A stretch of DNA of 64,000 bases from Moniliella sp. 'wahieum' (Eukaryota), in contig RSEE01000029.1 in assembly GCA_003971905.1 (NCBI GenBank), positions 62,001-126,000 on the forward strand. The letters run 5' to 3'. The notes beneath the pieces were generated by a model, which made no database searches, had not been told where the DNA came from, and saw nothing but the letters and a program-made list of their open reading frames with translations. This document shows positions 6,885 to 63,474 of the stretch, piece after piece. Made by a program: the position numbers and the translations under genes. The stretch's first letter is position 1, and each line of letters starts with the position of its first letter.

Positions 6885-6917
6885 CTTGAAGCTTGAAGCT
6901 TGAAGCTTGAAGCTTGA
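6885..6917. repeat. Heptamer array (CTTGAAG)4+
   Basis: cttgaagcttgaagcttgaagcttgaagcttga. Confidence 0.95.
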
Positions 6918-9605
6918 CGAGCAAGGCTCTATTATATAACATCGCAGGTTACATGTTACAACAGTCAACACCGGTACAAAGGAAGCAGGAGAGAGCTAGG
7001 ACAATGTTGGTCGTTGAACGTTGGTGCGTGATGCACTATATCGGTTTGGTCGACATTTTCCCCACTTGTCATGAACGTCATGAAGCTTCAAGAGCTTGAA
7101 GCTTGATTATTACATTGTTGACTAGTGACTAGACATGTTTCATCGCAATAAAGCCCTACTTGTGTGCGAGCTGAGGGATTCTCCTTGTTCAGTTCGTTGA
7201 ACGTGGTGAAGCCGGTGAGGCCTGAGGCCTGAGGCCCTAAGGCCTTGCGAGGCTGCCGCATGCTCAATCAGATCTCAGATGTGTAGTTCTATAGAATTTG
7301 TCGGAACGGATCCCAATCGGTGGGTGTAGTAGCATCATACTCAACAGTGTAGAAAAGAAGTTTTATGTACCCACACATGTGTTGCAGCCTGCTGCGCGCG
7401 GCTCAAAAGAAGTTAATAACTGTAGTCAATAACTGAGTAACTAGTCACCACTACTAGAGGGATATACTAGTGACTGGCCAATACTCAGCATAGTATCCAA
7501 CTTAGCAGATCCAAGTTCCCCAGAGATCTAGTCATTATAAATACATGGCCACGGTGCCAAAAGGAGGTCTGCTGAGACTGCAGTGGCAAACGTCTTTAGG
7601 CCTTCTTATAGATCCCTCATACTTCCGAAATGGCATCATAACATGTGTCACGGGCGCGGCCGGGCTTGCCATATCCCGCCTTGCCCGTGACAACATGCAC
7701 AACCGGCGAGATTGAATAAAACAGTGCAAGAAGGGGGACGATACAGGCACTGCTTTTTCGACAAACGGTAAACGAACCAGTAAGCCATCCTGACTACGAT
7801 CTTTGTGGAAGTAGCCTAGATCTCTTGATCTCTCACCGGCAATTCCCAGTTTTCTGTCTAATACCGTCAGTCGACGGGACTAAGCCGGGCCCACGGCATA
7901 ATTATGGACCGGTATAGTTTTAGTTTCGGCATCCATCCGTGGAGCCATGGAGCCTGTGAAGCGTGCTCAACTGTAGCCTATCTGACATTCTGCTCTCCGC
8001 GCCCGTGTCGGTCATGTTATTGTTGTGACGTGGGAGTGACGCGAAGACTATCCGGCAAAACTTCCGCTTCGATGGCTCTCCCACAATCGTTTCAGGCCCC
8101 TTGCCCATTTCAGGCCCCTGGATGGTCCGTCTCCCCTCTCTTTTTCTCTGTTCAACGTTCAACGTTCAGACAGGGAAAAGACAGGTTTCTCAACGCCGGT
8201 AGGCTAGCTGTTAAACATACCGTCACAATTCCTCAGCTTTGGAAACGTTATATGCACTCCACAGAAAACAGAGAGTATCATGTACGGTATACGCTTTCCT
8301 ATTTATCTATGCATTAAGGAAACCAATGGCAGGAGCCGCAGAGGGACCTGACCTGCTTCCGACACTTGGATGTTTGGGTAGGCTAAGCTGATAACACAAA
8401 AGCCGGGTGTTAGTCGGATAGATGAAGAAGTGTGCCTCATATGTCCCCCCACCTCGTTTTGCAATGTTCTGTTGAATACCGTAGGTCTCACTGCTATCCC
8501 CGGAGCATTTACCCACTTGCTCGGTTGATAATATTGACGCGATTGACGGTTGAAGTTGAAAACGTTGAACGTTGACATGTTGACGGGTCCTCGATCACTT
8601 TGATCGACTGGATGACCCTGATCGTGTACGATCGACGCTCACCCGATCATTACTAGATCATTACTAGATGACTTCGATCAGTATAACATTTATCAATCAT
8701 CCTGAGTCAAGGCTAGTCAAAAAGGCTCTTCGGCCGGATTTTGGTTCTCAATCTCCCCATCAGAAAATTGCCAAACAACCCCACGGCCGTGGTGATGATC
8801 GACGATCGTCCCCTCTCTCAGATATGATCCTAGTAATGCTGCAATCCGTAACGGAGAAAAGCACTGGAGGATCACACAGGAGAAAAGGGAAAGGTAAACG
8901 GGGTCGGCTCGTGGGGGCGTTACTTGGCACTGTGCTTGATGCCATTGGGGATGGCGTAGGGGAGAGACAGCTCTCCCCCTTTTTGCTTTTGCCTTTCAGG
9001 GGTTATGTCTATATTGACTCTCTATCGAGACAGGGGAGGAACAACACATGTACTCGTTTGTCTGTAAACAGAAGATGTTACCTTCAACCGCCCCCCCCCA
9101 CACCCCCTTTCTTACAGCCGAATGGACCCACATGGGCTGTTGGGTGCTTTTTGGGACCGGCTGCTTTTCTCTTGATGCGAATTATTTTTCTTCTTTAGCG
9201 ACTCTGTCATCCTGGCATATTAGTAGTCTTACCACAGGGCCGGCGCATATACACACTGTTGCCAAGCTATAGCCTAAAGCTCGCCTTAAGTCATGAGCCT
9301 CACCTTCTGTGTGGTTCCGTCCAGATCCGCCGGCAGTGTTTATAGAGGCGTTTTTAATCGAAAACCGCCGGAGTGTGTCTCACACGCCGCATTGCGGGGC
9401 GCCCATCTGGCAGGCGGTGGTCTGTTTGGAGATGGACAGCAAATGAGACGGTGCCACCACCCTACTGTGGGAGAGGCCATGGAGCCAGCATAAACGAATG
9501 ATTTGACTTTCCCACGAGGCAATATAGAAGCATCAGAGTTAAATGGCGAGTGTCAAGTCGCAGCCGCCCCTGCCGTGGCTCCAACCCGAAATTCGTAGCT
9601 CCAAA

Positions 9606-9702
9606 GGCAATGTGCCCGAGCGGTTAAGGGGATTGATTAGAACTCCAAATTCTAACCATCAATTAGGCTCTGCCTGCACAGGTTCGAATCCTGTCATTGT
9701 CG
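9606..9702 (+). tRNA. tRNA-Ser(AGA), intron-containing
   Basis: GGCAATG/CATTGTC acceptor stem, ATTGA-TTAGAA-[intron]-ATCAAT anticodon arm, long variable arm, GGTTCGAATCC, followed by a T-run. Confidence 0.95.
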
Positions 9703-9820
9703 TTTTATCTGTTTTTTTAAAATTTTTTTAAAATATTTGTTTGGGGAAAGATATCCTGTCACCAACTTGTAACACCAGGTGGAGCAATTCGCGGAAAAGG
9801 GTAGAGCTGGTCCAAGTGGC

Positions 9821-10062
9821 GATGAGACCTGGAGTCCTGATGGTTCTCGAGGGTGATGCAATCGCACTGGTGGTGGTGGTGGTCTAAGCCAACCAGCAAC
9901 GCCTACAGAGGAACAACAAGCAGCGTGTCGCCACCACACAGGGGCTAAGCTGCGGAACAGCCAAAACAAAACAAGACGGAGAGAAAACAATGGAATTCCC
10001 AGGCTTGAGGAGAAACTGAAGGGACATTGGCCAAAGCACGGGCCACCCGATGGCTCAACAAG
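9821..10062 (+). repeat. Diverged dispersed repeat, copy 1 (copy 2 at 13132-13386); probable TE fragment
   Basis: gatgagacctggagtc...aatcgcactg...ggtctaagccaaccagcaac...aaagcacgggccacccgatggctca aligns with 13132-13386. Confidence 0.85.
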
Positions 10063-10204
10063 TGGTCCAGCTCCTATCTGCCTGAAGGGAGGGGGGGTCT
10101 AGGGTTAGGGTTAACTATGTCTCTCATCGCGGGGATGAATCGAACTGGCTGTTGATGCTCACTGAGCCGAGGCTCCAGGTATTCCGCGGTAATTCCGAAC
10201 CCCT

Positions 10205-10400
10205 TCCGTGGTATTCCGTAGTATGTCGTGGTATGTCGTGGTATGTCGTGGTGAATCCGTGTCATTTCGTGGCCATCGGGTTCTTGATCTTTTTTCGTTC
10301 CGTGGTATGTTGTGGTGTTCCGTGGTATTCCGCGACATGTGGTGGTAGTCCGCGACATGTCGTGCCATGTCGCGGTATGTCGGAGTGTTCCGTGGTGGGT
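10205..10400. repeat. Left subterminal 10-bp repeats (GGTATGTCGT/GGTATTCCGT)
   Basis: Tandem ggtatgtcgt-like units adjoining the left TIR. Confidence 0.85.
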
Positions 10401-11295
10401 TTTGCGAGGCGGCTAGAAATTCAAAAGAGTCAGGCTCAAAAATCTCGACCTGGCAATCGGTAATCAAATTTCATTACTGCAATGAAATGTTGAGAAAGAG
10501 CAACACTTGCGAGCGTGCAAAAATTTCGACCTGGCAATCAAGTAATGAAATTTCACTAGAAGACCACCGGGCCTACGGCCCGGCCAGCTGGGGCTTCGCC
10601 CCAGCTTGGTGCTTGGTGCTTGCTCGCCACCGTAGCCACCGGCCCACCGTTCCACGCTGGAGGATTTTTATCACCCACAAGGAGACCACCGGGCCGACGC
10701 GAAGCCCCAGCTGGTGCTTGGTTGCCACCGTAGCCACCGTGGAACCTTCGCCACCTTAGCCACCGTTCCCCCTTCGCCAACACTGACACTTGCGAGCGTG
10801 CGACTTGGGAGCACACTCGGAAGAAGAATCGTTAGCCCGGCGTTGGGCTTGGAGAAAAAATGGTAGAGTGCAAAAGGGCAGCAGCACTCTCACTCAATCC
10901 TTTTCAAGGCTATTAAGAGCGCTTAGCACCTTATACACCTACAATAGCAGTCTTCTGCGTGTCTCTTTTGCACCTATGCCAACAGCTTCTGCTCGTGAGC
11001 CTTCGTCTTCGATCGATCCCAGTGCTTGATAGCTTCCAGTTCCACTGTGCATTTCTGATGCCGATCTCCATTTGATTTCCGTTTCGTTTCACCAACAAAA
11101 CAGTACCCAACAAAGGCAGCACGCATATTGTTTTGCCCTTCTCTTTTCCTCGGGAATAAAATGTACCTTGGCACACGCAACACTTATAGTGTTTTTTGTC
11201 AGACACCAAGTTCGGCACCCAATGGGTGAGGGTAAATCCAAACCTCCTCGTCAGAAACGTCGTCATCCGCTGCAATTCGTGCTAATGCATCGAAC

Positions 11296-12880
11296 TCAGA
11301 ACTTCCTTCTCAAGGGTATGTGTCCCATGACCCACCCAATGTCGGCAAGTGGGACGACAATGTTGTTTACTGATGCGAACGTCGCTCTGTGAAAGCCTTG
11401 TTCATCGCGTGGTAGAGACGCATTACCTTCAGCATCAATCGGATGAGTTCTACCAACAATGTAGTATTCGGAGCCCGCTTCATCGGTCTCCACCCCAATG
11501 TAGTAGTCAATCAACATGAAAAGTGCCCATCGTGCGCCAATTGCTATACAATGCCTGCATTTGTTGTGAGTAGTTGCACACAGTGTCCTAGACGGGACGA
11601 GGCATTCTGACCCTGTTGCCCTCGAACACGTTGCCTGTTCTCATTTTTGGCCCCCACTCGGCTACTGCCCAGATCGATAAATGGGCGGTAGGGTCAATGT
11701 TGAACGAGCACAGCAACGCCGCATCCCCCCTTGCACCATCGAGCCCATCAATAATAGCTTCTCGTTTGTGATTCAACCCAACCGAAAGTGTGGTCATAGC
11801 TTGGGGGAGCATGGAATCCATGCGAATGCCAACCAAGTTATCCTGGTTCCTCCTGCTCGCCTCGTTAGCAAGGACAGGATACGGTTTGGTAAACGAACGG
11901 ATATGGCGGCCCAACCATCCCTGTTCCCATTCTGCCGGGGCGGTCCATATCGCCTGCCAATTGCCGTATCTCCACATGTTGTCAGCCCAATGAAGAGTGT
12001 TGTGCACCGAGATCGAATGTGGTTGATCTCTTCGTTCAGACCGTTTGGAACAGTGAAGTCGTGAAACCGTTGACAAAATGGCAGGGCCGTTGTTCGGAGA
12101 CGTTCGACGTCGGCAGCATACATTTTCCGTTTGACAAACAGCCTAAGCATCACGCTCCCACCAGATCGAGTATCTGCTGAGGCAGATAATGCAACTTGAC
12201 GAACGGATAAAGCATGCAACTCATATTGACTGCAATCTCAAACATGCGCATGCCGCTGTTACAAGCAGAACCAATCGAACGAGGCACTCCACTACAAAAC
12301 GAAGAAGGAAGAAACCTAATCGACCTGTGTTTCAAGGTTAGCTCATTCAAATCAGTATAAGAAACACAACTGTTTCGGGAATGAGGACGCACACTTCATC
12401 TGAAACTCGTTAAAAAGGTCAACATGGGCGGCACCCAAATGTATGGGCAATCTTGGATCACGTAGACCGTTCTTCTCAGATTGAGAAAGGTGGTGTGCAT
12501 GGGCTCAACAGGATGAAAGGAAGGGCACATATGATGATGAGAGGCGCTTTCAGGTTGAGGTAATGTCGGCCATCCTGTATCTGCCTTGAAACAATTCTGG
12601 CTTGCGACTGACCCATGGTCTTCAAGCTCTTGTGCGTTGTACTCTGCAGTTTGACCCAGTCTTCGGGTATGCGCAACGGAGAATGGATGGTATCAATATC
12701 ATCGCTTCCGTCGCCCAGCAGCGGGCAAATTTCAGAGGGATATGTTGTCGTTGGCCAATATACCCCACCCCCATGCCTCTTGCGCCCAACAATATCGCAA
12801 GGGCGGCACGCTCGCTCGCCGGACACACTTGCCATAGATGTGCTTGCTGTGCTTTAGCGTCAGCGATGTTGTACATTACC
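11296..12880 (-). pseudogene. Degenerate EnSpm/CACTA-type (CMC) transposase remnant
   Basis: Fragments NIADAKA..ASVSGERACRPCDIVG...VYWP, LPSSFCSGVPRSIG, and ISVHNTLHWADNMWRYGNWQAIWTAPAEWEQGWLGRHIRSFTKPYPVLAN resemble the conserved blocks of fungal Transposase_21-type proteins. Recognised by eye; multiple stops and frameshifts. Confidence 0.65.
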
Positions 12881-13131
12881 GTGGTCTGAAGAGTAAACGA
12901 CTCCAGGGGGCGGACCAGGGGGCGGACCAGGAGGCGGACATGATGATGGAGAGGACCGAGGGGAAAACCTGGCGAAGACGTGGAGAGTGGACCATCATGA
13001 GGGCCAGAGGGTGATATGTACTCCTTTGGAGCTCCGCGGACGTTCCCGGGGCCTCATTTTGCCGCATCGCACACGGCTAGTATATACTCCACAGGAGCGT
13101 ACATGTGCCGGCCCTCGGATGGGTGGACTTT

Positions 13132-13386
13132 TGATGAAACCTGGAGTCTGGATGGTCCTCGAGGGTGATACAATCGCACTGATGGTGGTGGTGGTGATGG
13201 TGGTCTAAGTCAACCAGCAACCCCTACAGAGGAGCATCAAGCTTCAGACAGCGAGTCGCCACCAGGGGCAAAACTGCGGACCAAGGACAACCAGGAGGGA
13301 GGAAACAAAACGGAACTCCTAGGCCGGCTTGAGGAGGACCTGAAGGGACGTTGGCAAAAGCACGGGCCACCCGGTGGCTCAGCAGG
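13132..13386 (+). repeat. Diverged dispersed repeat, copy 2, inside the TIR element
   Basis: Aligns with 9821-10062. Confidence 0.85.
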
Positions 13387-13863
13387 ACTGTTGGGACGTA
13401 ATAAATGGTACGTTTAGAGCTCTTTGAGGCGCCAGGAGCTCTCGGAGCTCGGTGGCGTGTGGGTATGCTGCGGAGGTTGCCAGGGGCTGTTCCCACACGC
13501 ACAGCGCAGGGCTAATATGCTGAGCTGTGGGGGGTCCGTGCGTCGGCGTTACTGGTCTGTGCACCTTCCCACCAGAACCACACTGCTTTTGCTCTTGTTG
13601 CATCAGTCCTCCTCTTACCGCCCCTTTCACAGTTGAATGATATATATACCCCCCCCCCCCTCCCCCCCTCCACACCGGTCTCCTCTTCCCCCTAACAACC
13701 GCCTTCCCGACATGCCTATCACTATATATTTCCACACTTTCCTGCAGACCAACCGAAGACCAAAACTGGGGTAAGGTGCTAACCAAAGATCTGTCGGCAT
13801 CTCAACAACTGATGCCTGCTGTCCTGTTGGCGACCAACCAATCGTCCCAGTACTGTCTTTGCT

Positions 13864-13950
13864 AGGGTGTACTGACCTGCTGGGTGTACTGACCTGATGT
13901 GTGTTGGTGTACTGACCTGCTGGGTATACTGACCTGCTGCTGGTTACTGA
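13864..13950. repeat. Short tandem repeat of GGTGTACTGACCTGCTG-like units
   Basis: 4-5 imperfect copies read directly. Confidence 0.8.
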
Positions 13951-14689
13951 TGCTGGGAGCTGATCTGCTTTGGGTTTATAACAATCTTCCTACTGGGTAC
14001 TTACATGCTTGGGCACTGACTTACATGGTATGCATGTTGGTATCATATATCAACCTCTGATGTGCTTGGTATGTTAACCCGTACTTCCGCAGTGAGAATT
14101 ACCGATAGCATGTCAAAGGGAGCATGCCACCATTTGTGATATCAAGCAACGGTACGATCGATTGCAGTGTGGATGGAACTTGCGCGCGAGGCGGCCCCAT
14201 TCTGCCTGTTCTGCCCCTTCCTGTTGCGCCTTCACGCTGCGTTTCCCTGATTAACGGCCTGAGGCCTGATTGCATCTTCTCCACCAGTATTGCCTTGCCT
14301 TGCTTGCCTCCCGTAGCACACCTTAGTAATACAATCACTATTAGCCCAACAGAGATGTCCCATATATCTAAAGGATCTAAAGTAACACAACTGCCAATGA
14401 GGCTAGTGAGGGCCGCATATAGGCCCCCAAAGTATTGAGCAATGTAACCCTGTACCGATACATTGCATTATAAGCTAACCCTAAGGCTTATAAGCTAACC
14501 CTAGTGTAACCCTAGGACGCCATTTCCATTCCGTGGTAACCCGTGGTAACCCTTGGTAACCCGTGGAGTTCTGTGGTGTTTCCGTGGTTGAAAAAAAATT
14601 CTAACCTGTGTGGTGTGTCTATGGATTTCGTTCTCACTTTTTTTTCAAGATGGAGGGGCGCACTTATCCCATAGAATACAACAGTATGA

Positions 14690-15037
14690 ACACGGAACGG
14701 GCACGGAAGAGGTACGGGAAGAGGTACGGAAGAGGTACGGAAGAGGTACGGAACGGGTACGGAAGTGGTACGGAAGAGGTACGGAAGAGGTACGGAAGAG
14801 GTACGGAAGAGGTACGGAAGTGGTACGGAACGGGCACGGAAGTGGTACGGAAGAGGTACGGAAGAGGTACGGAAGTGGTACGGAACGGGCACGGAAGTGG
14901 TACGAAGAGGTACGGAAGAGGTACGGAAGAGGTACGGAAGAGGTACGGAAGTGGTACGGAACGGGCACGGAAGTGGTACGGAAGAGGTACGGAAGAGGTA
15001 CGGAAGTGGTACGGAAGAAGTACGGAACGGGCACGGT
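14690..15037. repeat. Right subterminal 11-bp minisatellite (GGTACGGAAGA with GGTACGGAAGT and GGCACGGAACG-type variants)
   Basis: About 30 tandem 11-mers adjoining the right TIR. Confidence 0.95.
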
Positions 15038-15765
15038 ATGCCACGGAATCCAAACTACGGAATACTACGGAATACCACGGGAGGGGTACGGAATCACCGC
15101 GGAATACCTGGAGCCTGGATCAGTGAGGTTGATGACACACACCTCTCACTCATTTCGAAGACAAAACAGAGGGGGTAGTGGAGTGGACGATACTGCTTTC
15201 AAGCATATTACTAGCCTTGTCTCATTCATCGGCCCGTCTTCTGTATGATCCAAGAATAATATAAGGCACGATGAAGACATAGAATCTAAAGCGCCCCCCA
15301 TATGCTCTCAACAGGCTCAACGCCTCTCTTCCATCGCCTCAGCAGCCGGTGAGAAAAGGGACTTAGTACTGTAACTAGGGCTGTTGCCACGGTTCTTAAG
15401 CGTTATTCATCATCTTCGCTGATGGCAATCATACAGTCATGGAACGTTGTCAGTGAAGCCCGCAGTTCTCCAATGAAAGAAGTGATGCATACATTTATAG
15501 ACTACCAAACCGGAGGCGAAAACAGGAGAGAGCGAAGACACATCAGGTAAATGATAAGTCGGCCGTGAATGAAAGGAAGCCTCATGAAGAAGGCAAAACA
15601 GACATGTCGACTTCACCAAGCCAGAGACTACGGCTTGTGACTTGATCCCATATAGAAAAACAGTGCCGACGGGATATATTTCGAGGGGGAACGGAGAACC
15701 TTGTAACTAATACAACTGATGGTACGCTTGTGACTCTAACAACCAACACTAAAGAGAACCCCGAC

Positions 15766-15837
15766 GCCTCTTTGGCTCAATGGTAAGGCGTCGCACTCGT
15801 AATGCGAAGATTAGTCGTTCGATTCGGCTAGGAGGCA
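15766..15837 (+). tRNA. tRNA-Thr(CGT)
   Basis: GCCTCTT/AGGAGGC acceptor stem, TCGCA-CTCGTAA-TGCGA anticodon arm, GTTCGATTC, followed by TTTTT. Confidence 0.93.
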
Positions 15838-16666
15838 ACTTTTTGCGCGGGGGCTGTCAGAGGCGGAGGAACTGTTGCGAAAGCAACACCGTTGGTCTTC
15901 TTCCCGTGTCCTCACGTTTTGGCCGAAAGTCTTCATTGCCGCCCTTCATCGATCATCTGGATCTGCAGATGATTCTAAACCGTTCCGAGACCCTAAGCTG
16001 ATGTAAGTACGCTCGCGCCCATGGGGCATTGGCAAGCCATTCTCGACGGGTTGACCGGCCTCAGTCTCGGTTCACGGAACTTAAGTAGGTCAGGGTGTTC
16101 CTGCATTCACAGAAAAGGAAACCAGTATCGCCCTTTCCAGGACGAATACGTCCCATCAATAAAGTATGCGCCTGCGGATGCAAAACACCAGCGTGTTGGT
16201 ACATTTGAGCCGGCGGACTGAGAGAGACCACCCGACGCGCAGATGCTGACCGACATACTAGAGACATTTCTGAAGATAACACGGACGCGGAGCCTTCGTC
16301 TCGAAAGGAGACGAATATTTAGTGAGCAAATCCAAGAAGCATGGATACAAGCTCGACGCTTCGCCGCTGCTCACACTCTGCACTGCCCAACTCCCAACTG
16401 GGGTCGGCCCCTGTGTTGCAAAAGCCAAAAAGTTATTGCCGCTGCCGCAACTCGCTCTGCCCCCCGTCCCAGTCTGCTCTCTACCCCAGGCGTAACCCAA
16501 TAACCCAATACAGCAGAAGCAACTTCTCCTTACTCAGGGCTCCCCCGTGTGTTGCGAGTTTCCCTCATGTACTACGTTTCGGTTGGCACAACAACCATAG
16601 TCTCTCCTTTGTGCACGAATGTATACACGCTAATAAAAAAGCGGGTAAACCCGATGAATAAAAAGA

Positions 16667-16764
16667 CGACAATGACAGGATTCGAACCTGTGCAGGCAGA
16701 GCCTAATTGATGGTTAGAATATGGAAGTTCTAATCAATCCCCTTAACCGCTCGGGCACATTGCC
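16667..16764 (-). tRNA. tRNA-Ser(AGA), intron-containing, second copy
   Basis: Exons identical to 9606-9702 in reverse orientation; intron cttccatattctaacc versus ctccaaattctaacc. Confidence 0.95.
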
Positions 16765-19750: not shown

Positions 19751-20416
19751 ATGGACACACTCCACGGCGCTTCTATGCTACCAGACGGAGAGAAAGATGC
19801 TTGAGCATGACGGGAAAGAATTATGATGATGTGTCACCTTGAAGATGCTTCCTCGCCACACATGTCTACAAGTGATGCTCTTCGTATCCACGTACGCTAC
19901 ATGCGGTGTGGGCTCGAATGCGGGCACCAAAGGGTCCTGATTGCTGGCGACTTTTACTGATGTCCTATTAATTGGGTGGCACGAAGCAGCAGAGCGCACG
20001 ACGGATGCGTAGATGGTTAGGCGCAGCGCCCTTTCTGTCCCCGCCTTAGGCTCTGGACAAGACATGGATGCAAACAATGCAGGGTTTAACGTGGGAAACT
20101 GGCCCATAGGAAAGAGACAAGCACAATAGGGAATGATGAAAGGTGACTGAGTGGAACAACGTATTTCCTGCTCGCGCTTGCGCAATACCACTAGCTGAGA
20201 CCATATGTTGTTTGCGAGTCAGACGACGGGATGGGACGTACGGTAGTGGGGGTTACTCAACTTCGTTGGAGGTTATCTTGCTTGACTGAAACTGGTTCTT
20301 GTTACTGTCCACATTTGCACCTGAGAGAGAAAGGGCGTTTGGGGAACTGTGTGCATGTCAGTGCCAGAATCATAATTCCTGCATAAGGAATTACCAATAG
20401 CACCTCCTACCAATTG

Positions 20417-20505
20417 GGGTTCGTGGTGTGTAGTGGTATCATGCCTCTTTAGGGTGCTTGACTCGCTCGTAGAGGTGGTCCTCGGTTCGATCCCGGGCGG
20501 ACCCC
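20417..20505 (+). tRNA. tRNA-Pro(AGG), intron-containing
   Basis: GGGTTCG/CGGACCC acceptor stem, CCTCT-TTAGGG-[intron]-TAGAGG anticodon arm, GGTTCGATCCC, T-run terminator. Confidence 0.88.
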
Positions 20506-20906
20506 TTTTTCAACTACTTTTTGCTTCCAGGAGCACACGCCATTGCCACAAGTCTGGCCGACTGCTTCACCTGGCTCTCTCGGCGTCAGGAGATGTATTT
20601 ATGGTAGGCTGGGGCGTTACTAGGTACTAGCTACTTGCTACTGTATGGGCACGACAATAAAGGTGCATGTGAGGCGCCAGATGCATAGGAGGGAGGGGGC
20701 TTAGATGAGCGGTGTCAAACAAAGGAGGGCAGGATGGGAAGAGGGGAGCGGAGCGGAGGGGGGACAACCATCGCCGCCCACGGGAGCATCGCGACTTTTT
20801 CTACGCGATGGCAGCAACTCTGGATCGAAGCAGAGCAGACGGCGCGGACGGTGGGAGGCGAGGGTGCGTGCGCACACCGGCGCTTTTGTGGGACGAGCGA
20901 GCAGGC

Positions 20907-26573: not shown

Positions 26574-28367
26574 GATATAACGTACGTTGCCCGCGGGCAA
26601 CTTAGGACGACCATGCCCCCAGAGTGGCGTAGTGCCTACTATCTAGGAACGGAACAGGCGGCGGAGCCTTTTTGCACATTTTCTGGGCGCAGCATCACGC
26701 ATAAGCGCTAAGCTCAGTGCTCACACCTGCTACGTGTCCATTCAACATTCAGCCATTCAGGTCGAACGTGCGTGCGCAAGCTTGTTAGCCTTCGCACGAA
26801 CTGATTAATTGATCGGCCTTGGACCTTGGCCTTACCAGATCTTACCGGTTAATCGTGCTAGACGTTAACTACCGTTAAACGTTAAACGTTAACCCCTGTT
26901 AGTAGGCACTAGATATTGATGATCGATGACCCGATGACCGGTTCCCCATTCCCGGTAACCGGTAACCCTTCACTAGCTTCACGCTCAGGTGAGCGCCAGC
27001 CCTGACCTTAGGCCTTAGGCCTCATTAATGAGATACTAAAACATGGGCTTGGCAGGGACCTATCCTTGTCGTTGAACGTTGAACACCGGTGACCACTCGA
27101 TCATGATCAAGATTATCGCAGGAGGCAGAGACTGGTGCTGTGGGGTTCCCCAGGGTTTTACCCGCGCCCCGCCCATATTGCGCAAAGATTAATGATTGCC
27201 CGCGGTCTGCTCTCTGTGACATGTTATGAGAGACTCAGCGCTCAGCCCCTCAGCCCCTCAGCGCTCACTGCGCTCACTACTAGTCACTTCGTTTGCAAGT
27301 GGCACGTGGCGCTCGTCTGGGCAGCTGTGTGCCCTGTTGTGCCCCCCTCCCCCGCGCTGCTCATTCCATCTCCGCCCTCTCTGTATACCCGAACGTCACG
27401 CATCACGCTCTCCGTGTGCAGGCCGAAGGAGCCTTGCACCGTTGTTCAGCTGTGAGTACTGTGAGTGCTCAGACTGAGCACTGGTACTAAGCCAACTTGT
27501 TAAATCCCTGAGGAATATGCCATCAGGTGCATCAGGGAATACCAGGGAATACCTAAGCCTGAGGCCTGTGCCTGAGGCCATGATGGATGTCGATGCACGA
27601 TGACGCGTGACGATGAGGTACCTGTGTACCGTGCACGCCCTGCGTGGGACAGCTGCACTAGGCACTGCTGTTGGGCTGCTGTGGCAAGTGGAGCAGATAT
27701 CGTTCACGGAGGGTTTTGTGGCTTAGTCCCGGCCAATCAGGCGTAGATTGTCCCTGGATTCCATAAGAGATGTGTCAGACATGTCAGATCCACAGGTCCC
27801 AGATCTCAGATCTCCGATTTCGCATCTTATCTTATCGATTAAGTATTACGTATTGATCCCCTGGAAAGTCGCGCTCACGCTTGAATCTTGAACACAGCCT
27901 CATTCTGGCAGCACCCGACCGTGCCGCGGACGGTCGAGGGTTGCGCGTCCTGCCGTCGCGCATCGCATTATATACCCACTCCTCCTGCCCTACTGAGGCC
28001 TTGGCGTGAAGGGTTACCTGTTCCCGGGAAGCGGTAATCAGTATCTAGCAGCGAGTAGCTAACCGGTAGCTTGCAATGGATCTAGTAAGGCCAAGGCTCA
28101 AGCTTCAAGCTTCAAGCTTCAAGACCGATCAATTAAACAGTCTGTGCTAAGGCTATAATCATTGGGCACGTACGTGCAGCCTGAATGTTAGATGGGCAAG
28201 TAGCAGATGTGGCATGCATAATGTGACATGTGATCCCTGCGCTTATGCGTGATGCTGCGCCCAGAAAAGGTGCAAGGTTCCAGCGCCTGTTTCCCTACAT
28301 AGTAGCCACTACGCCCCTCTGGGGGCATCGTCGTCCCAAGTTGCCCGCGGCGTACGTACGTTTTATC
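26574..28367. repeat. Diverged long inverted repeat: arms about 26574-27024 and 27991-28367, spacer about 1 kb
   Basis: For example ccgcgggcaacttaggacgaccatgcccccagagtggcgtagtg and ttttctgggcgcagcatcacgcataagcgc match the reverse complement of 28239-28350. Confidence 0.9.
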
Positions 28368-32706: not shown

Positions 32707-33730
32707 CGGAACAGGGGATGCTGGTGGTGGTGGTGTGGTGGTGGGGCACCTGCGTTTGTGTACCTGAAGGAAGCAGCAGCTACCAGCGATTCGTACATGA
32801 GAGGGGTGCTGTTGGTTCGGTAATTAAAAGTTAAACGAGCAGCCAAGTCAGACTGCGCCCCCGCCGCTGATCCTTTCCACACTGGCCCTGCGCCGCTGCG
32901 CAACCCCTGCCCCCCCGGGGAACAGACCTCCGCCACGACTGCCTCCGCGCCAACGCCGGCGACCTCTCTCCGACCTTGCTCTCTCATCCGTGCGGCCGCC
33001 GTAGACCATGCTCTCTCGCCCGGTGGGCCGAGGAGGCCTTAGGCCGTACGTCTCCAAAGCCTTAGGTAGGCCCTCGGTCTTAGGCCCTAAGCCTAACAGC
33101 TCTATCTCGGACATGGCTCGGACATTAATTGACATCACCACCCCCCCATCGCATACGATGTCCCCACACCCGCGCATCTCGACTGAGCCTGAGTCCCTCT
33201 TCCACCATGCCGAGAGCACCTTCCGGCGGCCTAGCTAGCCCCGCGGAAATAAGAGGAGTGTGGGTCGACGGCGGGCAAACTATAGTTCCCATATATACTG
33301 CCTGTCCAACAGGCCGCTCTCTTGTTCCACAGAGCTCCGCGGCTGATCACAACCAGCGAGCTAATATACCTGTCATCGGTGTCATCTCGGCAGATGTTCG
33401 CGGGGCCAACAGCCCCATTTCGTCTACGGACCATGGTTCTTCCCTCTTTCGGACGTTTGCTGAGCCGCCGGGTGGCTCGTGTGTTTTGTGACTAACGTCG
33501 ATTCAGTTCCTCATCATGCATCACAGGCCTAATAGGTGTTACGTTGTTTTCTCCTTCCTGTTTTCCTTGTTCCACAGCGTAGCCTCTGGTGGCGAGTGAC
33601 TGTTTGATGTTCCTCTGTAATAGGCGTCGCGGGTTGGCTTAGACCGTCGCCGCCACTAGTGTTTGAACTGGATCATGTGGAAAGCAGGCAAGAGTCTATT
33701 ATCGGAGACAGGGATGGGGGTGGATGGCAG

Positions 33731-41205: not shown

Positions 41206-41291
41206 AGGTCCCACTGGGATTCGAACCCAGGTTTCAGGAAGACGAGGCAAGCTTCAGAATCCTACTTGCTAACCCACTACAATATGGAACC
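41206..41291 (-). tRNA. tRNA-Gln(CTG), intron-containing
   Basis: Reverse complement GGTTCCA...TAGGA-TTCTGA-[intron]-TCCTG...GGTTCGAATCCCAGTGGGACCT. Confidence 0.9.
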
Positions 41292-60542: not shown

Positions 60543-62969
60543 TCAGTCTCGTGGGGTAGCTACCCGTCTGCGCGGTCGCTTGGGTAACGAGGCGGTGATG
60601 TCCACCACTTCCCCGTCTCCATTATCTTGCTCTCGTGCCCGTCGCCGGGTGCGTGTGCCAGCCGAGGGCGGCACGCTGCTGTCGGCTGGAGGCGGAGCGG
60701 CGGGACCAGAGCCCCCTCGTGTTGTAGCGCGCACATCCCCATTCATCAGCGCGTCAAGTCGTGCGCGTTCTTTGCGTTCGTTGGGATCATCGTAAGACAT
60801 GATCGCCTGGGTCTGTGCGGGCTGCTCTTCCGGGGAGGGCTCTCGATTGGCATTGGGCAGCGGCAGCGGCGGCGGCGGCAGCGGCAGCGAACGTGTCTTG
60901 GTTTCCATCATGGGGCGCGGCGAGGTGGACTGCCTCCAGGTCGGTGGGCGCGTGCGCCGGCGCCCTTTGCCGTCCGAGAGCAGGGCATGGCGCAGCTGAG
61001 ATCCTGTCGGGCCAGGGGCGGACACAGGACGATGTGGAAGGGGAGCCAAGCGTGCTGGAACGAACGTTGATGGCAGAGCCGTGGGCGTGGGCATTTGGGA
61101 AGGGCCCAATTGCGAGGCGCTGGATTGTGAGGCTCGTTTGGTGCTAAGCGAGGTAACGGTAATGGGTTGATCACACCTTCTTCATACATTCGTTGGAGGA
61201 ACTCGAGGCCCACCACATGAGCTTCGACCCGCCGTGCCATTTCCTTCTTGGGCTGAGATGGGTTCTCATCGCCCACAAGGAGATGGGTGTTGAGCCGACT
61301 GAACGCAGGCGTCATCTTGACCCCCATTCGTTTGGCCATCGTGTCAATATTGTGTCGCACAGCGCCTCCAAGGGGAAAGCCAGTGGAATGGAGCACCACC
61401 CCTTCAGCCCCAGGGACAGGGAAGGGTATCCGCGTAGGTGAATAAAAAAATTGATCCTTGACATCCACCTTGCGGCCCACTGCTGCGCTCTCCTCCAACC
61501 ACAGATGCGTAACCAGAGTTCCATCCTTATCTGTCCCATCGAGGGAATAGCTAAGTGGAACAATCGTATACTCCGCCTTCTCCCCAAGGGGAACAAGATG
61601 GGCACCCATCCGAGTTAGGCTGCTTAACACTTCCTTCTTCTCGTCCAGTTTGGCGTCCACTCGTATCCTGACTCTTCGAGGAAACGCCCGTCAAGGACCG
61701 GCGCGGAAGTCATTGGACTGGTGTCCACAGTCGTCGCAGACTCTGCCCAAGAATCACTCTCTTTGCCCTTGCTAGGCAACCCGTCGTCCCACTTGGATGA
61801 TTCGAGGGAAGTCTTGCGCGCTGGTGCCGATGGTTCCTGCACAATGCTGTCCACCAATCTTCGCTTGGATGAAGTTTCCTTGTTCTTGAGAAAGAGGGCA
61901 TCCGGGCCTAGCCCATGCGGGGCCCGTTCCTGGCGCAGCTTTTCCTGCGCTTTCTTCCTGGACGTAGCATACGACTGCATGTGTTTCCGCCTTTCTTGAA
62001 CGGAGGGTGGATGAAGCGGGTCATAGGGTTCCTCCCCTATGCATAATTTGGCACGCTCGCAGTCCTCCACCCAAACCGCGTCGACAAATTTGAGTTCCAT
62101 CGAACTGCGGCGCGAGCCTTGCGATCTACCTTGCGACTCGCTCTCGCGCAGCTGGCTCGTGATGGTCTTGATGTATCCTGCCTCGGCTTCGAGAAAGAGG
62201 ACGTGGCTCGTCTTGGGAGGTAAGGAGGCACCCCTGAGCACGACGCAGTCTGCCCCCAACGATTTGACTTTTTCCACCTTGGCCTGCACCCGTGCATTAT
62301 CCTCCGACGCTGATGCTGGTCAGTCAGGTGCACAGGAGAGTGGGAGGGGACGTACCCTGTGTGACTAATGCAGTCCGCAGGCCCTGCAGAGGGCGCAGAG
62401 GGTACTCCTCCGCCATGCGCAACGCGTCGCACTCTTGTCCTTCGACCCAGCGGAGCCTTACAGCTTTAATCCACTTGGGATCCACCACTGTCATGCCATG
62501 CAGGATGGCCTGGCGGTACTTGGCGCTGCCCACCTGAAGAGACAAGATGGGTAGCGACAATGGTGAGATCAGGCTGGGTCTTTGCACCCAACGCTTCGGC
62601 ATGCTCCACCAGCTCCGCCTTATCAGCAGCTGGGATGCCAGTGAAGGCAATCACGAGACCAGCCAGGGGACCAGCAGGTTTGGGAGCCGCCACCGGCTCG
62701 GGCTCGGACTCGGGCTCGGACTCAGACCCCACCAGCACCGCTCTTCGCTCCTCGGCCATGTCCGCTTCGTCATCGTCGTGGCGAGGGGCGGGGCAGGGCG
62801 ATTCCTGGCGCCAGGCACTTTGGTGCTGAGATGGCCGCGACGTGTGCCTCGCCGGTTCATGGTCGGCCTGGTGGTTGGGTTCGGGCACACGTGGTTGATG
62901 TGGGCCGCCAGTGTTGTTCTCCCCCAACACGAACATACTCGGGTCGGCAGGACGCGGGCCATAGGCATG
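60543..62969 (-). CDS. Multi-BRCT protein, Dpb11/Rad4(Cut5)-like; limits approximate
   Basis: PLAGLVIAFTGI, THL, SAKYRQA..VVDPKWI, RPLQGLRTAL, FVDAVWVEDC, LVTHLWLEES, STGF...NTHLL, MSYDDP. Confidence 0.8.
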
Positions 62970-63061
62970 GGGGTTTGCTTTTATTTTGTTTTTGTTTTTT
63001 TTTAAAAAATTGAAAGTGTTGCCACCTGTCATGAGCAACTTTGGCAGAAGTAATAAAAAGA

Positions 63062-63145
63062 CGTTCCATGTTGGGCTCGAACCAACGACCTCCCGATGGC
63101 CGTGAATTAACAGTCGGACGCTCTAGCCAACTGAGCTAATAGAAC
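63062..63145 (-). tRNA. tRNA-Asn(GTT), intron-containing
   Basis: Reverse complement GTTCTATTAGCTCAGTTGGCTAGAGCGTCCGACTGTTA-[intron]-ATCGGGAGGTCGTTGGTTCGAGCCCAACATGGAACG. Confidence 0.93.
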
Positions 63146-63447
63146 GGATGTGTCTGTTGTCCATGAACTCATTTCCACTTCTTTGGGGTCACCTGACCTG
63201 CCGGTCTGACCAGCCTCCCTCCTCTCTTCGTTTGCCTGTGATGGTTTCTTCTGAGCTACCTCCTTTACATTAACAGAGCTGGCCATTTTCTCCTGGTTTA
63301 CTTGGTGTGCACGTAACAACTGCACCTGTCATTATACTGGGAGTGGGGTATACACGGCATGCAGCGTGCCGCACTTCAAGCTTCATCGATCATCCTTCAT
63401 CGATCATCCGAAGCACCCCTCTCGTTTTGTGGATGCATGGGTGACCA

Positions 63448-63474
63448 GTGACATGTGACATGTGACATGTGACA
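63448..63474. repeat. Heptamer array (GTGACAT)4
   Basis: gtgacatgtgacatgtgacatgtgaca. Confidence 0.95.

Follow-up and report, generated by a model that had tools for sequence, protein, structure and literature searches.

In DNA transposons the length of the target-site duplication (TSD) mirrors the distance between the two active sites on the target, and is therefore treated as a nearly fixed character of a superfamily. In the survey by Kojima (2025, PMC12730594), EnSpm elements have 3-bp TSDs and CAC..GTG ends, members of the CMCT clade have 2-5-bp TSDs and mostly CA..TG ends, and Plavaka A and B have 2-3-bp TSDs with TGT..ACA or CATCA..TGATG ends. TSDs of 7 bp are described there for Kyakuja (KDZ group, Agaricomycotina; CA..TG ends, no terminal inverted repeats) and for hAT7 of the rusts (Pucciniales). 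Here we describe a transposon at positions 10158-15127 of a 64-kb stretch of fungal DNA (positions 62,001 to 126,000 of contig RSEE01000029.1; called the window in the following). The element is EnSpm-like in its transposase remnant, in its subterminal arrays and in a terminal inverted repeat (TIR) that contains CACTG. It is flanked by a 7-bp TSD, and only the length of this TSD is common with Kyakuja and hAT7. The window also contains numerous duplicated heptamers with the character of excision footprints, of which the element is a plausible source.

Both junctions can be read directly. On the left, ...ctggct is followed by GTTGATG at 10151-10157, and the element begins at 10158 with CTCACTGAGCCGAGG (CTCACTGAGCCGAGGCTCCAGGTATTCCGCGG). 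On the right it ends with CCTGGATCAGTGAG (CCGCGGAATACCTGGAGCCTGGATCAGTGAG) at 15127, followed by an identical GTTGATG at 15128-15134 and then by acacac. An inverted-repeat search found arms at 10170-10235 and 15051-15116 (66 nt, 89% complementary), and gapped alignment from the extreme tips, both of which start with CTCACTGA, gave about 67 columns with four mismatches and one 1-nt indel; beyond this the similarity is weaker. The left TIR thus occupies 10158..10235 (plus strand) and the right TIR, which ends with TCAGTGAG, 15051..15127 (minus strand). The exact 7-bp repeat GT-TGA-TG and the TIRs of about 65 bp, both of which had been noticed in the original prediction, were borne out by these data.

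CACTG occupies bases 3-7 of the TIR, so that the terminus is CTCACTG and not the CACT(A/G) of EnSpm/CACTA elements. If the element is taken to begin with CACTG, the trinucleotides next to its two ends are GCT and AGG; these differ, and there is no 3-bp TSD. With a terminus 2 nt longer the flanks agree in 7 of 7 positions, as had been claimed at the outset; this is longer than the 2-3 bp of classical elements and the 2-5 bp of CMCT. The two bases outside CACTG, CT at one end and AG at the other, form an inverted and not a direct repeat, and therefore belong to the TIR instead of representing a 2-bp TSD. GTTGATG is common in the window as such (13 matches, 9.0 expected). What counts is therefore that it directly adjoins the two tips of a long TIR: the chance of an exact 7/7 match abutting both tips of a 67-nt TIR is about 6e-5 at a fixed offset. 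A 16-nt core of the TIR matched the window twice (0.05 expected), at the two ends of the element. A search under relaxed conditions for paired TIRs with adjacent direct repeats found the element and one other 7-bp pair, which lies in GC-rich DNA; two pairs in the 7-bp class compare with 1.45 expected, and the second one is at chance level. The sequence at 10158-15127 is a real transposon with a 7-bp target duplication in the present copy. The TIR core had no match among metagenome contigs, and the window contains no paralogous empty site. Only one public sequencing run contained any part of the stretch (0.11 share of the sampled words); it yielded a few contigs of 150-215 nt that were identical to internal parts of the element, none of them spanning either junction.

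Inside the element, a broken gene lies on the minus strand at about 12635-11753, in which H(3)H and the stretch with the catalytic E are still legible. The sole transposase family that this remnant resembles is Tnp2/Transposase_21, i. e. the EnSpm/CACTA type. When the longest minus-strand open reading frame (ORF; 11588-12142) was compared by phmmer with 1.84 billion representative sequences, two proteins were hit at E<=1e-3 (E 3e-4 and 8e-4), both over ORF residues 42-118 and both without a Pfam domain of their own. Five Tilletia-type proteins of 933-1172 residues are 40-46% identical to the better hit, P0001, over nearly its full length. PF02992 (Transposase_21, Tnp2) is assigned to each of the five by precomputed domains, and the domain was found again in the four that were rescanned (E 7e-16 to 3e-18). 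The relatives compared here include uncharacterised Tnp2-like proteins of Tilletia indica. In a language-model atlas P0001 stands among basidiomycete proteins, and a minority of the neighbouring clusters carry DUF4218, Transposase_21 or Plavaka, which we regard as a lead only.

The consensus of the five Tilletia-type proteins contains C-x2-C, H-x3-H (HLLLH) and CER with the catalytic E, the features named as CMCT hallmarks in the survey (Kojima 2025, PMC12730594). Aligned by reading, the window ORF follows this consensus without gaps (SVHNTLH...AEW...F..PY) and shows several R-to-W type changes, which are typical of decay. A hidden Markov model (HMM) of the family was run on all 2104 six-frame segments of the window, and its three top hits all lie within the element, on the minus strand and collinear. 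The best-kept piece (11753..12016, minus strand) comprises the H(3)H, the catalytic E and the downstream stretch of a Tnp2/EnSpm-type DDE transposase; it matches profile positions 864-956 with E 8.7e-8, reaches E 7e-10 to 9e-11 within the window in tblastn, and is 34-36% identical to its nearest proteins over 70-77 residues. Weaker collinear remnants lie at 12228..12635 (minus strand), where profile positions 676-732 were matched at 12635-12462 (E 0.019) and positions 763-791 at 12314-12228 (E 0.086); very weak collinear tblastn matches extend up to 12975. These two weaker pieces share one frame and are separated by a stop, and the piece at 12016-11753 is in a different frame. At least one stop and one frameshift thus lie ahead of the best-kept piece, and the gene is therefore broken. 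The original prediction of EnSpm-like transposase remnants is supported by phmmer, by PF02992 in the relatives and by the family HMM.

A candidate for a better preserved relative with the same terminus was dropped. The 4.4-kb metagenome contig L001 contains a near-intact Tnp2-like gene (L001:359-3172, one in-frame stop at 1760-1762) that is 48% identical to the Tilletia-type family, and 620 nt downstream of this gene a motif, CTCACTCAGC (L001:3793-3802), resembles the terminus of the element. The other end is lacking on the contig and the motif is not significant: a match with at most one mismatch occurred in 126 of 200 shuffles, and the local alignment score was reached in 426 of 500.

Both ends of the element carry subterminal arrays of short repeats, as in EnSpm/CACTA elements and as had been predicted. 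The left arrays (10207..10394, plus strand) consist of 10/20-nt units with TCCGT/CGTGGTA cores; tandem repeats were detected at 10207-10272, 10298-10332 and 10321-10364, and direct repeats continue to 10394. The right array (14692..15027, plus strand) contains 30.5 copies of the 11-nt unit ACGGAAGAGGT (score 495, 88% matches), and further tandem arrays lie on this side at 14528-14577 and 15054-15080. Common to both sides is an inward-facing TCCGT core, which was found 6 times on the left, 33 times on the right and not once on the opposite strand. The TCCGT-core arrays are probably bound by the transposase or by an accessory protein. The imbalance between some 30 copies of the 11-nt unit on the right and a handful on the left suggests that the right array underwent a satellite-like expansion after the death of the element.

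These arrays also bear on the question of whether the remnant is the element's own gene. When a gene of about 1060 aa is projected from the match at 12016 by simple arithmetic, its start would fall near 14430 and its end near 11250, immediately within the bounds of the two subterminal arrays. No internal TIR pair and no short TSD were found that would bound the remnant as a nested element. Since the projected gene fills the space between the arrays and no nested TIR pair is present, we read the element as a decayed autonomous copy, whose own gene the remnant probably represents.

Several findings weigh against this reading. Pfam searches on the 15 ORFs of the element gave chance-level hits only (ETF_alpha 0.022, PIEZO 0.068), and the part of the remnant that is significant individually comprises only about 260 bp. 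Neither tblastn nor the family HMM recovered the N-terminal half (about 600 residues), the D residues or the C(2)C in the element. The TSD rule is based on one insertion (n=1), since this is the only copy in the window. Furthermore, the TSD exceeds the 2-5 bp and the terminus departs from the mostly CA..TG ends described for the CMCT clade, and Kyakuja and hAT7, not CMC, are the fungal families for which the survey documents 7-bp TSDs (PMC12730594).

The last two points lead to a different interpretation, in which a non-autonomous member of a 7-bp-TSD superfamily (hAT7-like, Kyakuja-like or a short-TSD MULE) carries a Tnp2-like stretch that was captured or belongs to older nested DNA and is irrelevant to mobility. 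The patchwork nature of the interior would suit such an element. The traceable transposase corresponds to the C-terminal third only, and the space of its missing N-terminal part is taken up by a dispersed repeat of about 260 bp (13133..13384, plus strand; 76.5% and 72.7% identity to other copies), a C-run, a 17-nt array and two of the heptamer footprints described below. Hairpin-type footprints, moreover, are reported to be a classical hAT signature (PMC2921059, PMC5499845). The position and direction of the remnant, however, suit a full-length gene that fills the space between the arrays, and neither a TIR pair nor a short TSD marks a nested CACTA element around it. Nor did Pfam detect hAT, KDZ, MULE or any other transposase family in the 15 ORFs of the element, in 60 ORFs of its flanks or in 117 ORFs of the window. 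The termini of the element fit neither the YARNG pattern of hAT elements nor Kyakuja, with its CA..TG ends and lack of TIRs. We therefore consider this interpretation unlikely.

The element was also compared family by family. With EnSpm/CACTA the element has in common the remnant with H(3)H...E, CACTG near both ends and the subterminal arrays; it departs from that family in two defining traits, the TSD (7 bp instead of 3 bp) and the terminus (CTCACTG instead of CACT(A/G)), and differs from it also in the long TIR (about 67 nt). Plavaka A and B, which belong to the fungal CMCT lineages and are related to EnSpm, possess C(2)C and H(3-4)H, but the relatives of the remnant match PF02992 and not the Plavaka model. 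Kyakuja resembles the element in having a 7-bp TSD in a basidiomycete; unlike it, the element has a 67-nt TIR, and no KDZ hit was obtained by Pfam with the ORFs of the element or with the relatives of the remnant. With hAT7 and the hAT footprints (the hairpin model of Ac/Ds and Tam3) the likeness lies in the 7-bp TSD and in two TSD copies with complemented junction bases, neither of which is specific to hAT. No hAT transposase (BED finger, dimerisation domain) was found in the 15 element, 60 flank and 117 window ORFs, and the termini are not hAT-like. The 8-bp target rule of hAT elements is nTnnnnAn, whereas the footprints of the window have T3 and A5. When the family profile was compared with the sequences in PDB, the hits were at chance level only, with no match to RAG1 or Transib. 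Searches of the literature, restricted to open-access full text, returned nothing relevant on a CACTA element with a 7-bp target site or on heptamer footprints in fungi.

The second part of the original prediction concerned duplicated heptamers in the intergenic DNA, for which the element was named as a candidate source. Perfect arrays of at least three copies number 9 at a period of 7 nt, and 4, 2, 2, 0, 1 and 1 at periods of 4, 5, 6, 8, 9 and 10 nt. Exact heptamer duplications were found at 57 loci, as compared to 3.6-3.8 expected from shuffles, and 35 of the 57 duplicated heptamers are palindromic around the centre base in one rotation (0.4 expected). A plain preference for palindromic heptamers was rejected as an explanation; 1080 were counted against 1041 in shuffles, i. 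e. there is no enrichment. In hybrid pairs of one type, a heptamer abcNdef precedes a copy that begins with the reverse complement of the last bases of abcNdef; the other type is the mirror form. The two types occurred 45 and 40 times, where about 5 each were expected, and hybrid pairs with a 2-nt conversion 45 and 48 times, where 3.4 and 3.5 were expected. This signal is specific to a length of 7; at length 8 the counts were 4 and 5 versus 1.1.

In the TNA register (T3, A5) 94 events were counted at 60 loci, with 0.6 events expected, and decamers composed of TNA, a 4-nt palindrome and TNA occurred 97 times (2.4 expected). In 86 of the 97 decamers a flank provides the template for the 4-mer palindrome, namely the left one in 30, the right one in 34 and both in 22; the remaining 11 match neither. 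Because of this templating, we rejected the idea that the heptamers arose from a TNA duplication of 3 bp and an untemplated 4-nt palindrome. Among the junctions at which both outer positions are informative, 34 show a 2-nt conversion, 5 are exact copies, 3 have only 1 nt converted, 1 has an inner-only change and 8 have other outcomes. A further class of 16 pairs has the form TSD+2nt+TSD, and nearly every spacer in it reads as the reverse complement of the two bases at one end of the heptamer. The target deduced from 93 hybrid pairs, with the centre left unfiltered, has T3 in 75% and A5 in 74%, and the centre base is C in 36, G in 30, T in 16 and A in 11 sites; the sites thus point to NNTNANN. 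ORFs supported by Pfam make up 30% of the window and contain one of the 60 footprint loci.

As a description of the window, the model of heptamer units as footprints is strongly supported: pairs of a TSD and a palindromised copy exceed the expectation of about 3.5 more than tenfold, and at period 7 only. The TSD of the element fits these units in length and TNA centre. We infer that the junctions are the signature of hairpin-type excision. Examples of footprint loci are 6885-6919, 7214-7234, 28096-28123, 63374-63408 and 63447-63474. At 1064-1094 an array with a 9-nt period, GTACGTTGA in 3.4 copies, amounts to a heptamer with a 2-nt palindromic addition, repeated, and falls within the TSD+2nt+TSD class. 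Arrays of palindromic heptamers reach up to 7 units and resemble the repeated use of one site.

The abundance of exact heptamer duplications (57 loci) might also suggest that an ordinary CACTA element (CACTG...CAGTG) with a short or no duplication landed at the junction of an existing GTTGATG-GTTGATG footprint, and CACTG is indeed located 2 nt inside the ends. This would require an exact hit on such a junction, on the order of 80 positions in 64,000 or about 0.1%, and the inverted orientation of CT and AG speaks against it as well; we regard it as highly improbable.

How closely the footprints can be tied to the element is a separate question. Its TSD, GT-T-G-A-TG, agrees with the deduced target in length, in T3 and A5 and in the S base at the centre. 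Apart from the chance-level pair mentioned above, the element is the only one with a 7-bp TSD in the 64 kb, and it contains the only transposase trace. Flank hairpins are established for RAG and Transib, which are relatives of the superfamily of the element, so that by analogy flank-hairpin excision would be expected here too. This makes the element a plausible source of the footprints. Some observations weaken the connection. For one site the fit to NNTNANN is weak statistical support (the chance is about 0.05), and the outer bases of the TSD are not palindromic. Bases of the element ends occur in no footprint spacer of the window, so that nothing ties the scars to the TIR. The copy is dead, and two footprint pairs of the T2 type lie within it (14041-14054 and 14258-14271). 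Fungi also contain further families with 7-bp TSDs, such as hAT7 and Kyakuja, whose relatives might have left the scars.

From these observations one could argue, while accepting a CMC-like element and its 7-bp TSD, that the footprints come from a different family with an equal stagger and that the fit of GTTGATG to NNTNANN is a coincidence. A density of 60 loci in 64 kb indicates far more activity than one decayed copy suggests, and because footprints lie inside a copy that is long dead, an active source must have existed elsewhere. Yet no second element with a 7-bp TSD and no other transposase trace is present in the window, and two unrelated families with the same unusual stagger and the same T3/A5 rule in one compact genome would be the less economical explanation. 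Separate origins seem unlikely to us, and the footprints may have been made by the family to which the element belongs.

A hairpin model is reported for Ac/Ds (PMC2921059) and for MULE, hAT and Transib elements (PMC5499845). Applied to the window, it would account for all classes of footprint by a single intermediate, as follows. The element at 10158-15127 would once have been an autonomous cut-and-paste DNA transposon with a transposase of the Tnp2/EnSpm lineage (CMC, related to RAG/Transib), and it would have landed in non-coding DNA, among the tRNA genes of a fungus resembling Ustilaginomycotina. A 7-base staggered cut at an NNTNANN heptamer (GT-TGA-TG) and repair of the gaps would have produced the 7-bp duplication. 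The hairpin model is the classical one for hAT and related elements. Upon excision, which would probably proceed via hairpins, a 7-bp TSD would remain on each side, and both flanks would be sealed as hairpins that are nicked about 2 nt 3' of the tip. Joining of the long 3' tail on the left to the recessed 5' end on the right would give the first hybrid type, and joining of the bottom strands the mirror type. If one palindromic addition were kept with both TSDs intact, the +2 class would result, and opening at the tip would give an exact duplication. The rejoined ends would thus carry two copies of the heptamer, with about 2 bases at the junction exchanged for the reverse complement of the end next to them. 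Where the heptamer is a palindrome beforehand, excision would yield an exact duplicate, and arrays could therefore grow by reuse of a site; slippage may add to this growth.

Taken as a whole, the chain of inference that the element is a decayed autonomous CMC-like member with an atypical 7-bp stagger at NNTNANN appears to us evenly poised between right and wrong. Of the original interpretation, the 7-bp TSD of the copy, the EnSpm/Tnp2 remnants and the footprint behaviour stood; that TIRs and remnant are of one lineage, that 7 bp is the rule of the family, and that the family made the footprints are proposed parts of the scheme. A wider proposal is more tentative, and we rate it below even. According to it, a branch of EnSpm/CMC in early-diverging Ustilaginomycotina extended its stagger from 3 bases to 7 with TNA at the centre, hairpin-mediated excisions of this branch scar the non-coding genome at about one site per kb, and palindromised heptamers are hit again and thereby seed palindromic heptamer microsatellites.

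If true, a transposase of the CMC type with cuts 7 bases from each other would extend the TSD rule within the lineage that gave rise to RAG1, and would offer a natural contrast for structural work on target capture. As a natural record of what is probably excision repair of the hairpin type, the window itself is unusually clean and dense: its 64 kb contain 60 loci, and in nearly all of them about 2 bases at the junction are converted. Should the reading hold, the compact genome would make it possible to test the opening of flank hairpins in a fungus and the seeding of microsatellites and promoter variation by footprints.

Among named organisms, those with the closest counterparts of a conserved Snu114 exon in the window (about 60% identity) are Thecaphora, Violaceomyces, Sporisorium, Testicularia, Tilletiaria, Malassezia and Exobasidium. 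This places the host within Ustilaginomycotina or next to them, with no close relative among these names. The rest of the window contains ordinary housekeeping genes and no other transposase (117 of the 162 ORFs of at least 130 aa were scanned). Further copies of the 260-bp dispersed repeat lie at 9821-10060, about 100 bp left of the insertion site, and at 33458-33645 (minus strand), between two genes; the repeat matched no Rfam family, and overlapping ORFs gave no Pfam hit. Next to the left arrays, the segment 10420-10760 contains short hairpin-forming inverted repeats (10461-10558 and 10584-10714), and a diverged copy of 10561-10661 is present in run X1. This segment may be a separate small repeat.

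The element is located in a gene-poor stretch amid tRNA genes at 9606-9702 (plus strand), 15766-15837 (plus strand) and 16667-16764 (minus strand), the second of which is a tRNA-Thr 640 bp to the right of the element. The two longer tRNAs were missed by ARAGORN and detected by Rfam. Elsewhere ARAGORN called a stop-anticodon (tta) tRNA at 20416-20506, a tRNA-Gln at 41206-41291 and a tRNA with a 4-base anticodon at 63060-63146; these three may be intron-bearing, misread under bacterial settings, or false calls. The two outer genes, at 9606-9702 and 16667-16764, are inverted, intron-bearing copies of one tRNA (97% identity over 104 nt). A larger 'element' at 9689-16680 with TTCGAA as its 'TSD', which was considered as a candidate, actually consists of these two inverted copies of one tRNA gene.

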